63,729 nucleotides of DNA, filler included, from Collodictyon triciliatum (GCA_043381765.1; 4 parts of 4 records of this genome joined end to end with filler, not necessarily neighbours in it), one strand, 5' to 3'. Positions 56,901 through 62,900 are shown, counted from the whole stretch's first letter. Notes: generated by a model not told the origin, from the sequence alone. Made by a program: numbers and translations.

Positions 56901-59900
56901 TTTGTTTTATTTTAGCGTTTCGATTCGCTTCTGGACTTTGGTCACAAACACTGCAAACTTTATCGAGCAAAAGAAGCAAGAAGCTGGTATTATAGTATTG
57001 CATTTTATTTTTATCTTTTTAATTTAAAATATTGTATAGCTGTCACATCTAATTATCTATATATATATAATTAGATATGATCATAACCATTCATTTATTT
57101 ATTTTATTTTGCCACCAGAGTATGAAAAAGAGGGACTCCAGGGCTTGCTGAAGATGGTTCAGGAGAAAAACACGTAAGGATCGAATCAATTTTTATTTCT
57201 TTTCATTATTTATAAAATCAGAATTAAAATACTTTGCATGGAATAAAGGAAAAAGAGGAACTTAAATGGTCTCTTATAGGGACGAGAAGTTTGTCTTTCT
57301 CATCGACGCCATCAACCAAATCCACCCATCCCAAGGAACGCCAGCTCCGCATTTGCTGACCTGGTTGCCCAAGGAAACGCCACCTAATGTTGCCGTGGTT
57401 GTATCGACCATTCACACTCATGAATCTTGCACGGTATTTAGTATTTTGGGATATTTTTATATTCTGCATAAAAATTGATTTCGAGTGGAACTTCACTTAA
57501 ATATATCTGTCACAAGTCTGCCAAGCAAAATGGACTGGAGCCGATTCCTGTCGCCAAGTTGACCGAGAGTGAAGTTAAGGATGGTGTTGAGTCATTCCTC
57601 ATCCGCTATGACAAGACCCTGAGCGAAAAGCAAGTTGGGCTGATTCTGGCTGACCTGAAAGATACCGGTGAGACATTATTATTTTTTTAAAATATTTGTG
57701 CATTTATTTGGATTACTTTTTTCATGAAGTGATTTAGTTGATAATTGTCTGATATTTTTTTATAGGCCACCCGCTCTATCTCCGCATCATTCTGGATGAA
57801 GTCAGGGTCTTTGGAGTTTATGAGAAGCTTGATGATGAACTGACCGCGCTGCTTTCGACGAATGGCGTGATTGAGCTTTACACTCTCATTATCAAACGCT
57901 GGCAACTAAAGTTTGACAGAAAAGGTGAGTAATGATTTTACATGATAAAATTAAAATTATGAATACAATTTTATTGATTGATTTTTTTTTTGTTCAGTTT
58001 CCTCGTCTGACGGAAAAGAGACAATGCATGTCGAATATGTGTCCCTCTCGATGAAGGTTCTCTTTGTCTCCCGGATTGGCCTGAGTGAAGGTGATTTGGA
58101 CAAGTACATGAAAGACGCGATTGGTACAGGATTCGAGCTTGCTGAGTGGTTTGCTTACTCTTAAATATTAATAGAATTAAAAGGTTTACCCTTTTTTTTC
58201 ATCTTTTTATTTAACTCGTCGTTTATCCATTCAAATAGGAAATCCTTCTTCTTTACCCTCATCGAGTCGCTTTTCGTCCGTAATGGAAGGTTGGTGTTAT
58301 TTCTCAACTTTATTTTTCATAAATATGTGTTTTTGGTGTAATTTACTAGGATTAAAACTTTATTATTGTCATGTATTATAGATACATGTACTTCCACCAG
58401 CTGCTGCTGGAGACCACCGAAAAGGTCTACTTCTCCGAAGAGAGAGAGATGGAAAAAATGCACGAAAAATACGGAAAATGGCTGTTTGGCCAGTATTCTG
58501 AGGCTGGTGACGCAGATGAGGAGCTTGCTGCTGAGATTTGCTACCAACTTCTAAAAGGAAATTCATTCGAGTTGCTCATCGAATACATGAAGCAAAAACA
58601 TGTATTTTTTTATTTTTATTCGATTAATTTCAGTCATAATGAAACAATTTTCACTGATTAATTTTAAATATTTCATAGGTAATCAGTATCATGCTCCGTG
58701 GTCGCTATCGCTACGAGTTCTTTACATGCTGGAGAGCAATTAACGCAAGTGGGGCAGCAAACTACAAGGATGTCTACGGAACTTTGGCAAATGTACCTTA
58801 ACTTTAAATCAGTTCATTTTTATATAGTTCCGACTTCTATGTTCATGGATAAAAATTCGGCACATTTACTCAATCCAATACTTTATAGACTCTAGATAGT
58901 GTAGGAGATCTGCTTGTTGAGTTCTTCCTCGAGTCTTTTGAGAACTCATTTCTTTTATCAATTCTTAATATGCGCCTTGGAAAGCATCAAACAGAAGGTG
59001 GTTGATACTCATTTTTTATAATCATATGCCCAATTATCTTTATTTTTTTTTTAAAAAAATAATGCAAATGGTTTATCTAATTCCATCATAGAATCGAAGG
59101 CTGGCGATTACTTGAACCTCGGTCGTGTTTGCAAAAATCTCCAAAAGTGAAAACCAATATTGCATAAAAAATAAAATCCTATGATTGTATTTTTAGTTAA
59201 TCATTATCTATGAAAAATTGAACAGATGGGATGAATCCATGATTTATTACAAGAAGTGTCTCGATTCACTTGAGAAAAATGAAAATAATTCTCTGCACAT
59301 TGCCACCATTCATGAGGAAATGGGATTCATCTATCTGCAACAGGATAAGTAAGGCTCATCAACCATATAAAAAATTAAAATAGTTTTGTAAATAGAAATA
59401 GAAATCTGTTTTTTTTCTCATATAGAATTGATGAAGCCCTCGATGAATTCAAGAGCTCACTAGAGTGGAAAATCAAACTGGGCGAGAACGACTTGCAAGT
59501 GGCCCAATCTTATGACCGCTTCGGAGACATCTATGTGAAGCAGTCAAAGTATTTTTATCACGATTTATTTTCTGATTTTCTGCTTTTGTTCTGTAAATAT
59601 GATTCTGCTGATCAATTTTATCATAGAATTAAGCAAGCTCTGGATGAATACACAAAAGCCATGGAAATCCGCCAAAAGAAAGTCGGAAACGAGCATCCTC
59701 TTGTCGCAACATCGTATCAGAACTATGGCCATGTCTCTCTGGCTGAAAAAAAGTAGGCGATTGATTTTCTATTCACCGAAGTTGAGATTCTTGTTACCAG
59801 CTTGATGCTTTACATTTCATTTAATTCTCTTCCAAAAATTTAGATACCAAGAGTCTGTCGAGTACTACGAAAGAGCAAAGCTTATATTTGAGAAATCGTT

Positions 59901-62900
59901 AGGAAGCAAGCATGTATCTGTTGCTTCAACAATCGAATTTATAGCAAACGCCCACCGAACGTGTGGAAAGTATGATTGAGCCTTCTTTCTTTTTTTTTTT
60001 TAAAAAAGAAAAAACAACAAAAACATAAAAATGAATACGGAATGCAGGATGATTGAAATTGTTCCATGAAAAATTTATACAGAGAAAAGGAGGCTTTATG
60101 CTCGTTGAAGCAGTCCATTACTATTTACGTATCTGCCCTTGGCGAAAATCACCCAAATGTTGTGGCCTGCTATGAAATGATTGGGGATATCAGCCGTGAT
60201 GTAAAAGAGTAAAATTTCACACATTTAATCAAGTTCTTCTCATTAAAATATTCTTTTGAATAAACATTATCACTCACGAGAATTCAGCCTCAAAGGTGCC
60301 CTGGAGAATTATTCAAAGGCTTTAGAAATTCGAAAAAGGACACTAGGCGAGAAGCATGTTGATTATGCAACCTCTCTCGAGAATGTGGGGAGAACAAATT
60401 TTGAGCTTCAAAGGCAAAATTTTCATTTATTTAAGTGAAATCGAGTAATTCGTACAAGTTTATGTTGAAACGAATACCTTATCTTTCCTTCGTCGTATAC
60501 GAATAGATTGGACCAAGTGGTTGAGTACTTCCAGAAGGCAGCTGTAATCAGAAAGAATACACGAAATATTATGTCTCTAAAAGAGAGTTTCATAATGGCG
60601 AAAATCGCCAATCTTATAGATGAAAAGAAAGAGAAAGAGGTATCAATTCAGATTCACAAAACGCTGATTCATTTATTCAGTGAAGCACATGGCATGAATC
60701 ACCTTAAAGTATGGAGCAGCTGTGAAGAAATCAATAAGAATTACAAGGACCTCAAACTGCATAACGACGCAGTCGAATTTTGGGCTGAGATGAGGGATAG
60801 ATTTGCTGATAAACTCGGATGGATTCACCCCAGAACATTAAACTCGTGCGAATACTTGTCTCTCCATTTAAAAGAAATTGGAATTAGCAAAGACCCTGTC
60901 GAGTTTACAAGAGTCAAGAAATTTATCAGTGAAACTCTTGATGGTACAAAACTGGATGACGAATGGAATCGAGAACAGATAATTGCGTCATTATTTGCCA
61001 TTGTCTACATGTCACGCGATGATGAGAGCATATCAAAGGCAGCATCTGATGCCATCACAGTTTTGAATTTCATTAATGTTTCGTTTAGCGGAATGGACTT
61101 GACAGATATAAAAATTCCAAACGCAAATCTCAGTAATTCAATTATTGATGGTGCAAACTTCACTGGTGCCAACTTGGATGATGTTGACTTCACGAATTCG
61201 ATGCTTGGCGACAGTGTTTTTGATAATGCAAATATGCATCGTGTAAAATTCGGGATTTCTCAAGAAAAATTTGATGGGCATACAAAAGGTGTCAACAGCG
61301 TTTGCAGTTTTCAAGGACCCAATGGTGAAAAATGGTTGGCTTCTGCAAGCGAAGATAATACAATTCGCATTTGGGATGTAGCAACAGGAAATCAAATCAA
61401 AACATTAGAAGGACATACAGACCGTGTCAACACTGTTTGCAGCATTCATGGGCCGAATAAGGAAGCATGGTTGGCTTCTGGAAGTCACGATAATACCATA
61501 ATTATTTGGGAGGTAGCCACAGGAAATCAAATCAAAAGACTAGAAAGCCATACGATGCAAGTACACAGTGTTTGCAGTATTCAAGGACCGAATGGTGAAA
61601 ATTGGCTTGCTTCTGCTAGTGGTGATAGAACAATACGCATTTGGGATGTAACAACAGGAAATCAAATCAAAACATTACAAGGTCATAGTAATTCTGTCAT
61701 GACTGTTTGCATACTTGAAGGACCGAACGGAGAAAAATGGTTGGGCTCTGGTGGTAGTGATAGAACAATACGCATTTGGGATATAGCAACAGGAATTCAA
61801 GTTAAAGTTCTAGAAGGTCATAGTGGTTATGCCATGAATATTTGCAGTATCCGGGAATCAAACGGTGAAACCTGGTTGGCATCTGGAAGTGATGAGAATA
61901 CAATTTTCATATGGGATGTAGCCACTGGAAATAAAATAAAAGTATTGGAAGGACATGCGGGAAGAGTTTGTAGTGTTTGCTGTGTTAAAGGACAAAGTGG
62001 TGAAAATTGGTTGGTCTCTGGAAGTTTTGATGCCACAATACGTGTCTGGGATTTGGATACAGGAAATCAAGTACGAAAAATGGAAGGTCATAAACATACG
62101 GTTAGAAGTGTTTGCAGTATCCCAGGGCTCTACGGTGAAAATTGGTTGGTATCTGGAAGCGATGATTGGACATTACGCATTTGGGATGCAGCCGCAGGGA
62201 ATCCAGTACACAGTTTGCAAAAATCAGAGGTGACATACACAAAGGTAAAGTTAAATTTGAGGAAAGAAAATTTGCAAGATTACACGTTAACACCTAACAT
62301 AAGAGGCAACACCTTACAATCGATCGAAACCAACAGTATTGGACTCATGAAAACAATGCAAATTAAAGGCCCAAGAAAGCTGAAAGGTGGAAATATTCAA
62401 ATTAGAAATGTCTTAGGTTTGAATCACTTCAACAAATCTAAACTTATCTCCATCGGTGCTGCTTCCTTTGATGCAGAGTTTGTGTCGTATTGCGAACAGG
62501 GTAAATTTACAAAATTCCAAGCTCAGATGATGGCTGAATGCTTTGAAAATGGCTGGATTGTCGAGAAGGATCTTGATAAAGCTGCGAAGTGGTGTGGAAA
62601 GGTGAATGATTTTGAAAAGCTGGTGCATCTTGTTCAGCAAGGTTCAAGAGAGGGATTCAAAATTTTGAGGGAGCTGGCTGAGCTCATAGAAAATGTGGGA
62701 AAGCGTAACGAAAAACATAAGTATCCACAAGCTATTTCGATTGTCGCTGAATCCTATGAAAATGGATGGGGTGTTGAAAAGGACTCTGATAAAGCTGCAG
62801 AGTGGTGGGAAAAGGCCAAAAACTTGGAAAAATTGAAGCAACTTTCTCAACAAGGCTCGAAGAAGGCGTTCGATATTTTGATGACCATGGCTGGAACAAC

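Follow-up and report, generated by a model that had tools for sequence, protein, structure and literature searches.

In Ectocarpus, the NB-ARC-TPR candidate immune receptors are built from serial 126-nt exons (Zambounis et al. 2012, PMC3341825); in the portion of that report drawn on here, 124 TPR exons of 126 nt are counted in 13 NB-ARC loci, so the brown-algal precedent invoked in an earlier, sequence-only reading of the DNA studied here is real. Brown-algal ROCO (ROC-COR GTPase) LRR genes have 72-nt exons, all phase 2, for which the excerpts considered report splice variants with differing repeat combinations (Teng et al. 2024, PMC11378527). The LRR exons of NLRP3 are 171 nt long, encode two LRRs each and, according to the part of the study used here, show the same modularity in human, mouse and pig, with exon 5 skipped in human only (Hoss et al. 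2019, PMC6642158), so that modularity alone is no proof of use. In brown algae, sensor domains with one repeat per exon have been regarded as a mark of receptor diversification, and in human NLRP3 as a basis of regulatory splicing. Our literature search returned no paper that ties Diphylleia or Collodictyon to NACHT, NLR, STAND or tetratricopeptide repeats.

The window, meaning the whole 63.7-kb stretch of DNA that was analysed, contains a plus-strand gene at 55084-63060, for which we made a manual, script-checked model of 25 exons (CDS 5673 nt, 1890 aa). All its acceptors are AG, its donors are 23 GT and one GC, and no in-frame stop is present. The model is collinear with P0122, a Diphylleia rotans transcript (blastp 50.7% identity over 1608 aa; tblastn agrees), and spliced contigs of the RNA runs X1 and X2 match eight introns upstream in it. 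According to Pfam and the translation, the domains are, in order, DUF4062, a NACHT-type NTPase, TPR, pentapeptide, seven WD40 and Sel1. The N-terminal DUF4062 domain lies in exons 1-3 (55084-55274, 55479-55569 and 55673-55918); scanned exon by exon, its fragments reach 20.5 and 24.4 bits (cut-off 24.7), homologues and family members score 38-54 bits, the region is 70% identical to P0122, and residues 134-280 of the family member P0127 match telomerase protein component 1 (PDB 11gz_A, E 3e-18). The NTPase core (56671-57433) has, in the model translation, a Walker A motif (GxxxxGK[ST], as GIGKS) in exon 7 (56671-56849) and a Walker B motif (hhhhD, as FLIDA) in exon 10 (57280-57433). Its exons taken singly match AAA_16 (19.5 bits), NPHP3_N (18.4) and NACHT (17.0), all below cut-off, whereas collinear paralogues (36-44% identity) exceed the cut-offs for NPHP3_N (30.7 and 29.3), nSTAND1 (30.9) and AAA_16 (36.9 bits). 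These motifs and the DUF4062, NACHT and NPHP3_N matches, with homologues that pass the Pfam cut-offs, bear out the earlier description of an NLR-like STAND gene. NB-ARC is absent among the Pfam matches listed for the window exons and the Diphylleia paralogues (for P0122, the best 25 of 56 families).

The terminal exon (60507-63060, 2554 nt, an 863-aa open frame) encodes first a stretch with no Pfam match (60508-61032), made up of the closing helix B and a helical linker, then pentapeptide repeats (61033-61257, Pentapeptide 66.9 bits), seven WD40 units, each exactly 135 nt long (61285-62229, WD40 191.7 bits), and Sel1 repeats (within 62230-63057, Sel1 70.4 bits). C-terminal LRRs were not found, the sole LRR_5 match (17 bits, under cut-off) overlapping the pentapeptide repeats; since the C-terminus consists of TPR, pentapeptide, WD40 and Sel1 with no LRR, the gene is only NLR-like and not an NLR sensu stricto. 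By analogy with the STAND paradigm, the DUF4062 domain would be the putative signalling part, the NACHT-type NTPase would serve in switching and oligomerisation, and the TPR/pentapeptide/WD40/Sel1 region may act in ligand sensing or auto-inhibition.

The TPR array corresponds to exons 19 to 24, on the plus strand at 59226-59348 and 59426-59548 (123 nt each) and at 59627-59752, 59844-59969, 60083-60208 and 60288-60413 (126 nt each); every one of these coordinates had been given exactly in the sequence-only reading. A single reading frame is open across all six, the acceptors are AG in 6/6 and the donors GT in 5/6, the last (60414) being the GC of a GC-AG intron (60414-60506) that follows TPR exon 6 and is backed by a loose end of an X1 RNA contig at 60505 and by the indel-free alignment to P0122. 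More generally, the junctions of the array rest on splice signals, this gap-free alignment and that one loose end, none of the RNA joints listed (15 of 59) falling within the array. The TPR exons begin with the third base of a split codon and finish with two bases, so their introns are phase 2, and the pattern reaches one intron beyond the six exons on either side, giving seven consecutive phase-2 introns (after exon ends 59146, 59348, 59548, 59752, 59969, 60208 and 60413) at one position of the repeat, as had been claimed. The first of them terminates exon 18 (59092-59146, plus strand), which together with exon 17 (58889-58997) encodes the helical sequence ahead of the array and the first helix A; in tblastn, P0122 is 83% identical to the stretch 59091-59144. 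Among the remaining 17 introns of the gene, 8 are phase 0, 4 phase 1 and 5 phase 2, so that, at 5/17 each, a run of seven phase-2 introns would arise by chance with a probability of about 2e-4, the shared repeat position not yet counted.

The array of exons 19-24 is of the Pfam TPR_12 / TPR_10 type, the kinesin-light-chain-type TPR, with a 42-residue period. TPR_12 matches five of the six exons singly (E 4e-8 to 0.011; 0.006 in exon 20, 6.2e-6 in exon 21, 2.1e-5 in exon 22 and 0.011 in exon 23), only exon 24 (33.8 bits) passing the curated cut-off of 30.1 bits and exon 19 alone having no Pfam match, and the collinear region of P0122 scores 136.5 bits. At every possible join among exons 18-25 the codon formed is one for K, N, E, D, R or S and in no case a stop, so the arithmetic by which any of these exons could be skipped, duplicated or swapped without a frameshift holds. 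The proposal that each exon encodes one TPR of 41-42 residues stands for the period and fails for the register: in Pfam coordinates, the exon boundary falls between canonical TPR positions 16 and 17, in the turn of 3 residues that links helices A and B, so that each exon encodes helix B of one TPR, a linker and helix A of the next. The same A/B-turn cut is seen in an AlphaFold2 model of the paralogue P0139 (TPR blocks with pLDDT 84-97), in which helices of 16 and 18-19 residues alternate with a 42-residue period.

Close relatives of the gene are found only among transcripts of Diphylleia rotans (EukProt EP00002), a protist, in agreement with the protist origin first proposed. The family comprises P0122 (= P032243/P032246) and at least 10 further Trinity genes, hence at least 11, and runs X1 and X2 carry many contig variants for it that are 90-95% alike. 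Relatives outside Diphylleia are 23-31% identical, carry PF13271, PF05729 and TPR_12, and are named nephrocystin-3, telomerase protein component 1 or tetratricopeptide repeat protein in their sources. P0122, the nearest homologue, shares the whole architecture, and the combination of TPR, pentapeptide, WD40 and Sel1 in one protein was seen in no proteins other than P0122 and P0133, which are two isoforms from a single Diphylleia gene; P0122 differs by an N-terminal extension of 347 residues, unmatched in the window, and by 18 WD40 units vs 7. It likewise has six TPR units, and their number and order are identical: the best match is the positional counterpart for 6/6 window units (35, 46, 48, 29, 40 and 64% identity for units 1-6; diagonal mean 0.44, off-diagonal mean 0.23 and maximum 0.38), and 250/250 residues of the TPR region align with no indel. 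The WD40 array is intronless, so the part that varies in length between these homologues is the array without introns. The TPR exons are 43% identical to P0122 vs 58-70% for the N-terminal domains, this faster evolution being expected of a sensor surface.

Among paralogues, TPR unit counts in the eight genes compared are 5, 5, 6, 6, 6, 6, 6 and 7, so units have been gained or lost among paralogues, and this gain or loss is slow. For more distant pairs, no positional correspondence is recoverable (P0136 vs P0263: diagonal 0.36, off-diagonal 0.33) despite N-termini that are 51-65% identical, a lack of signal that fits either cassette turnover or repeats constrained to a consensus.

Within the array, the six units are pairwise only 15-39% identical as protein and 37-53% as DNA, and similarity among the seven introns does not exceed that of shuffled sequence (best local score 23 vs 22.6 +/- 2.5); divergent units and unrelated introns indicate no recent duplication. 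A six-unit profile, run over both strands of the 63.7-kb window, returned the six self-matches (E <= 2.4e-20) and a next best match at E 1.4, so that neither orphan nor inactivated TPR exons were found there, and the orphan cassettes that the sequence-only reading had suggested looking for are lacking within this stretch. The introns of the array (77-113 nt) are too short to harbour a TPR exon, and a search of the window for paralogues gave 0 matches outside the gene.

We consider it likely that the array is the product of old exon duplication, kept as a fixed block, and not a running shuffling or skipping system. The protein would be a large NLR-like (STAND) NTPase from a freshwater, diphyllatean-like protist, and the six exons would supply the central part of its solenoid of seven TPRs. 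An ancient tandem duplication of one exon-plus-intron unit, with a 126-nt exon and a phase-2 cut in the A/B turn, may have built the array, and such duplication would make every TPR exon a symmetric cassette of the same length. The units would then have diverged and the array would have been passed on as a fixed block in the lineage of this gene, the symmetry of the exons being the probable trace of array growth and one that would allow the slow gain and loss of units among paralogues. Since unit number and order are conserved and there is no sign of skipping among the Diphylleia isoforms, exon symmetry alone is not evidence of active diversification.

An active sensor-diversification system, working by exon shuffling or alternative splicing as first proposed, appears unlikely. 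Where the present data bear on them, the outcomes that the sequence-only reading had named as counting against it are largely those obtained. It would draw on the frame- and stop-safe joins, on a multigene family of at least 11 Diphylleia Trinity genes with its many X1/X2 variants, on the range of 5-7 units and the non-collinear arrays of distant paralogues, on the faster evolution of the TPR region and on the splice variants of the brown-algal precedent (as far as PMC3341825 and PMC11378527 are drawn on here). However, in a survey of 23 variant isoforms from 8 Diphylleia Trinity genes (a short-read assembly filtered into 90% clusters), none (0/23) omits a unit, and internal in-frame deletions of at least 10 aa are absent (0/23); the six units remain collinear with those of P0122; pseudo-exons are absent from the short introns, unlike in the Ectocarpus loci; and no pair of exons or introns shows a recent common origin. 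A related and similarly doubtful proposal is that the TPR exons are at once a splice-selectable ruler and a set of evolutionarily exchangeable cassettes, arising independently of brown algae. If so, skipping or retention at unit boundaries would give varied TPR counts or receptors without the WD40/Sel1 sensor, exchange of cassettes between the paralogues, at least a dozen in number, would add diversity to the family, and a brown-alga-style repertoire mechanism would exist in the deep-branching Diphyllatea (CRuMs), on another NTPase scaffold and with another cut of the repeat.

Isoform breakpoints bear on a further possibility, in which an unspliced array intron regulates the receptor by yielding a graded series of putative proteins truncated after 1, 3, 4, 5 or 6 units and so without the WD40/Sel1 part. 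Ten of the 23 variant Diphylleia isoforms break exactly at a unit boundary (9 end or diverge at successive boundaries and the tenth starts there), and one gene has isoforms that end or diverge at successive boundaries, at 783, 825 and 867 aa. In 8/8 isoforms that end at or read beyond a boundary, the split codon is followed by a stop or by a T-initial codon (Y or F), as predicted for a retained phase-2 GT intron. The breaks are thus as intron retention would give, and from these breakpoints the phase-2 intron position appears to be common to the whole family. On this proposal the array introns, being phase 2 with GTA or GTG donors, would halt translation at once when retained. In the window gene, translation is computed to stop immediately if the intron after exon 18, 19, 21 or 23 is retained, 2 residues on for the one after exon 22 and 7 residues on for that after exon 24, the 78-nt intron after exon 20 being the sole array intron that could be read through in frame. 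But a stop after the split codon is generic for a phase-2 intron with a GTRAG donor and needs no design, Trinity assemblies commonly contain partly spliced pre-mRNA and transcripts with retained introns would normally be degraded; regulation of this kind is very improbable.

Also very improbable is that an intronless repeat array came first and introns were later inserted separately at a favoured site, which would make exon symmetry uninformative on exon duplication: the array introns do lack mutual sequence similarity and the adjoining intronless WD40 array indicates that repeat arrays of this gene can grow without introns, but it is improbable that seven introns entered separately at one codon position, the sequence at the exon ends (AA, GA or AG, followed by A or C) mostly mismatches the usual proto-splice consensus MAG/R, and the position is implied in paralogues just 34-40% identical, so the introns predate the radiation of the family.

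The gene resembles the Ectocarpus NB-ARC-TPR genes, as characterised in the portion of that work used here, in having a STAND NTPase followed by TPRs from serial 126-nt, 42-aa exons and in belonging to a multigene family of a eukaryote that is neither animal nor plant. It differs in its NTPase, which is of the NACHT/NPHP3_N type with DUF4062 where that of Ectocarpus is NB-ARC, in its introns of 77-113 nt, which hold none of the inactivated TPR exons described in Ectocarpus introns (PMC3341825), in the collinearity of its array with that of the nearest homologue and in the continuation of the TPRs into a pentapeptide/WD40/Sel1 extension; in addition, the Ectocarpus exon is described as a 34-residue TPR plus linker (PMC3341825), whereas here the cut separates helices A and B within the TPR itself. 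With the ROCO LRR exons, to the extent covered by the excerpts cited, it shares one repeat per exon, phase 2 and the status of candidate receptor, unlike them having no skipping variants among the 23 isoforms of its Diphylleia relatives. TEP1/nephrocystin-3-like proteins and bacterial DUF4062-NACHT-TPR proteins also have an N-terminal DUF4062 and a NACHT-type core, but they are just 23-31% identical to it, and the bacterial members are intronless. As in NLRP3, at least in the part of that study considered, the sensor-repeat exons of a NACHT protein are modular with a border fixed inside the repeat and not between repeats. The gene is a further case of the repeat-per-exon design known from brown-algal NB-ARC-TPR genes and the LRR exons of NLRP3, now on a DUF4062-NACHT scaffold and in a little-studied protist lineage.

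The six TPR exons of this Collodictyon triciliatum gene lie at 59226-59348, 59426-59548, 59627-59752, 59844-59969, 60083-60208 and 60288-60413, and their lengths of 123, 123, 126, 126, 126 and 126 nt agree with those given by the sequence-only reading. All six acceptors are AG and five of the six donors are GT, the donor of the last exon (60414) being GC, and a single reading frame stays open across the six. Because every exon opens on the third base of a split codon and closes on two bases of another, the array introns (77-113 nt) are phase 2; the six aligned peptides are of equal length save for one residue at a single position, which puts these introns at an equivalent point of each repeat. 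Such symmetric exons would permit units to be gained, lost or exchanged. Taken singly, five of the six exons match Pfam TPR_12 (E 4e-8 to 0.011), the curated cut-off being attained only by the last, which is no surprise when half-length fragments are scanned.

The gene model, built manually and then checked by script, comprises 25 exons at 55084-63060 on the plus strand, with a CDS of 5673 nt encoding 1890 aa; all acceptors are AG and the donors are 23 GT and one GC. Seven phase-2 introns follow one another, after exons 18 to 24, a run that reaches one intron beyond the TPR exons on each side, and the remaining 17 introns vary in phase (8 phase 0, 4 phase 1 and 5 phase 2). Eight upstream introns match GT..AG joints in contigs of two sequencing runs, X1 and X2, which contain spliced copies 90-99% alike; among the listed runs, none is recorded as RNA. 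None of the joints seen in 15 listed rows out of 59 (contigs of X1-X4) falls inside the TPR array, and the bins of contig cover, with little or none in 59065-60419, are not interpretable. Support for the array junctions therefore comes from the splice signals, from a loose end of an X1 contig and from the alignment of the TPR region to P0122, the nearest homologue, a Diphylleia rotans transcript, which is gap-free over 250/250 residues. The X1 loose end links 60413, where exon 24 ends, with 60507 and so supports the GC donor of intron 60414-60506 (GC-AG), the sole non-GT donor among 24. An alternative GT donor at 60435, which would extend exon 24 by 21 nt and remain phase 2, was rejected on two grounds: the 7 residues it would insert have no counterpart in the P0122 alignment, and the junction given by the X1 loose end is 60413 to 60507. 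Two joints with CT..AC ends, 58141>58257 and 58307>58464, disagree with model introns 13 and 14 and were tentatively taken as coming from divergent paralogue contigs.

At the 5' end, an AG immediately precedes the model ATG (55082-55084) and one X1 contig extends 58 letters past 55082 without a match, so that an upstream exon is possible. P0122 carries 347 further residues at its N-terminus, to which nothing in the window corresponds; in precomputed Pfam, a CH domain (PF00307) is found in a single paralogue, P0145. The stretch between the model start and about 53300 includes two 44-base N runs (54156-54255, filler between parts). Intron 1 (55275-55478) holds a long (ATA/AAT)n microsatellite at about 55284-55410, open in all three frames and skipped as a repeat in the contig alignment.

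Exon-wise Pfam searches placed DUF4062 at the N-terminus, just below cut-off, and the Walker A exon matches AAA_16, NPHP3_N and NACHT, also just below their cut-offs, scores that reflect the scanning of fragments alone. When exon 3 was searched exhaustively with HMMER against 1.84 billion representatives, 12 proteins were returned, of which the six long ones, when looked up, proved to be Diphylleia rotans transcripts (EukProt), from a freshwater protist; further searching added five Diphylleia genes and one from the amoebozoan Pyxidicula. Identity falls to 23-31% in the next group, DUF4062-NACHT-TPR proteins of bacteria and metagenomes, and every named close STAND relative (at least 34% identity) is from Diphylleia rotans. 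Paralogues exceed the curated cut-offs for DUF4062, NPHP3_N, nSTAND1, AAA_16, TPR_12 and TPR_10, and one of them, in its DUF4062 region, is similar to telomerase protein component 1, matching a fragment of solved structure (E 3e-18). From these matches and relatives the gene is NLR-like in the broad STAND sense and probably of protist origin, as had been proposed, and belongs with neither the NB-ARC nor the LRR proteins. PADLOC left the NTPase part unmatched, a generic TPR model being its sole match.

Other loci of the window were also recorded. The gene at 45664-48261 (minus strand) combines RING and B-box zinc fingers (47866-48261) with a 461-aa NHL-repeat exon (45664-47049), a TRIM-NHL-like architecture; its Atlas look-alikes all belong to metazoan-labelled clusters, which is a lead only and is odd beside a gene with protist relatives. 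An animal source was weighed on this account; with the named close STAND relatives all from Diphylleia rotans, a diphyllatean-like protist is favoured. A 748-aa single open frame at 4837-7083 (plus strand) has a sub-threshold match to an Eco57I-type N6-adenine methylase (23.1 vs 25.3 bits) and lies partly inside 6001-8000, where G+C is 51% against a window average of roughly 38%; an NDUFS4 exon (NDUS4, 74.7 bits) lies on the opposite strand at 7642-8409. An exon at 32541-32978 (minus strand) matches Glyco_transf_20 of the trehalose-phosphate synthase family (39.3 bits).

The register of the exons within the TPR was read from the paralogue P0139, in which the canonical TPR_1 profile begins 16 residues ahead of a unit boundary. 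In its AlphaFold2 model (mean pLDDT 83.9; TPR blocks 84-97), 16-residue helices alternate with helices of 18-19 residues, and all unit boundaries fall where the 3-residue turn behind the short helix ends. With the boundary in this A/B turn, each exon runs from helix B of one TPR through a linker into helix A of its successor, and on the predicted structure each of the seven introns splits one TPR, eight exons making seven TPRs. The truncated isoforms P0273 and P0275 of Pyxidicula operculata, compared by eye with P0150, diverge within TPR helix A and not in the A/B turn; the intron of this DUF4062-NACHT-TPR gene seems to occupy a different repeat position than in the Diphylleia family.

The six units are 15-39% identical as protein and 37-53% as DNA, showing no recent duplication of a unit, and the seven array introns resemble one another no more than shuffles do. 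Orphan cassettes are absent from the window: a profile of the six units run over both of its strands matched only the six themselves, and no paralogue of the gene occurs elsewhere in the window. P0122 shares 50.7% identity with the window protein across 1608 collinear residues and has the same six units in the same positions: each of the six window units is most similar to its positional counterpart (identity about 0.35-0.64 for these pairs, against a mean of 0.23 and a maximum of 0.38 for all others). We consider it probable that this is an old array, in which an exon-intron unit would have been duplicated in tandem long ago, and that this lineage has since inherited the array as a stable block.

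That units are slowly gained, lost or exchanged within the family is nevertheless likely, or at least possible, given the variation in unit number (5 to 7 across the eight genes compared), the absence of positional correspondence in distant paralogues and the faster change of the TPR region. Distant paralogue pairs have no recoverable correspondence of TPR units and give no signal either way: between P0136 and P0263, whose N-termini are 51-65% identical, same-position units score 0.36 and other pairs 0.33. Identity to P0122 is 43% in the TPR exons vs 58-70% in DUF4062 and NACHT, and by this measure the TPR exons are the faster-evolving part of the gene.

The earlier interpretation is borne out in part: the type of gene, its origin in a protist and a modularity that keeps the frame stand, and active diversification is not supported. 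Skipping was sought among 23 variant isoforms of eight Diphylleia Trinity genes, each compared with the longest form of its gene, in a short-read assembly of a relative and not of Collodictyon triciliatum itself; an internal in-frame deletion of at least 10 residues occurs in 0/23. Ten of the 23 start, diverge or end exactly at a unit boundary, which indicates that the intron position is family-wide, and in all eight isoforms that end at or read past the boundary the codon that follows is a stop or T-initial (Y or F), as predicted for a retained phase-2 GT intron. These variants resemble products of retained introns rather than of skipped exons. In Collodictyon, intron 59549-59626, after the second TPR exon, is 78 nt long, in frame and stop-free, so that its retention would add 26 residues without termination; retaining any of the other six array introns leads to a stop 0 to 7 residues past the split codon.

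The copy-number-variable, putative sensor module of the gene is the WD40 array at 61285-62229 (plus strand), seven units of exactly 135 nt (45 aa) in one intronless exon. These units are on average 54% alike in amino acids and 67% in nucleotides (maximum 78% and 81%), far more mutually alike than the TPR units; P0122 has 18 WD40 units of the same exact period, and X1 and X2 hold many variant contigs here, with joints skipping a net 135 nt, although contig joints in repeats may be assembly artefacts. The terminal exon (2554 nt) matches pentapeptide (66.9 bits), WD40 (191.7 bits) and Sel1 (70.4 bits) families in Pfam. Compared whole with proteins of near length it gives 3807 matches, all WD40-driven and mostly cyanobacterial NACHT/NB-ARC-WD40 proteins, and among the 120 listed only P0067 is similar N-terminally, weakly (E 4e-5). 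Its residues 1-260 have no homologue at E <= 0.001 among 1038 candidates when searched against longer proteins, and a scan of metagenome contigs with this region gave 78 pattern stretches, none confirmed by tblastn.

Our literature search found no paper on Diphylleia or Collodictyon that mentions NACHT, NLR, STAND or tetratricopeptide for this family. PMC3341825 describes, for Ectocarpus NB-ARC-TPR genes, 124 TPR exons of 126 nt at 13 loci and introns that contain inactivated TPR exons. In PMC11378527, the LRR exons of brown-algal ROCO genes are 72 nt long and phase 2, with splice variants, and Teng et al. 2023 (Plant J) is cited for alternative splicing of NB-ARC-TPR genes. NLRP3, according to PMC6642158, has LRR exons all of 171 nt, cut at one within-repeat position, and exon skipping occurs in human, though neither in mouse nor in pig. 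The Collodictyon array differs from these in its NTPase type, its freedom from pseudo-exons and its conserved order, and shares with Ectocarpus NB-ARC-TPR, brown-algal ROCO and NLRP3 genes the design of repeat-modular exons.
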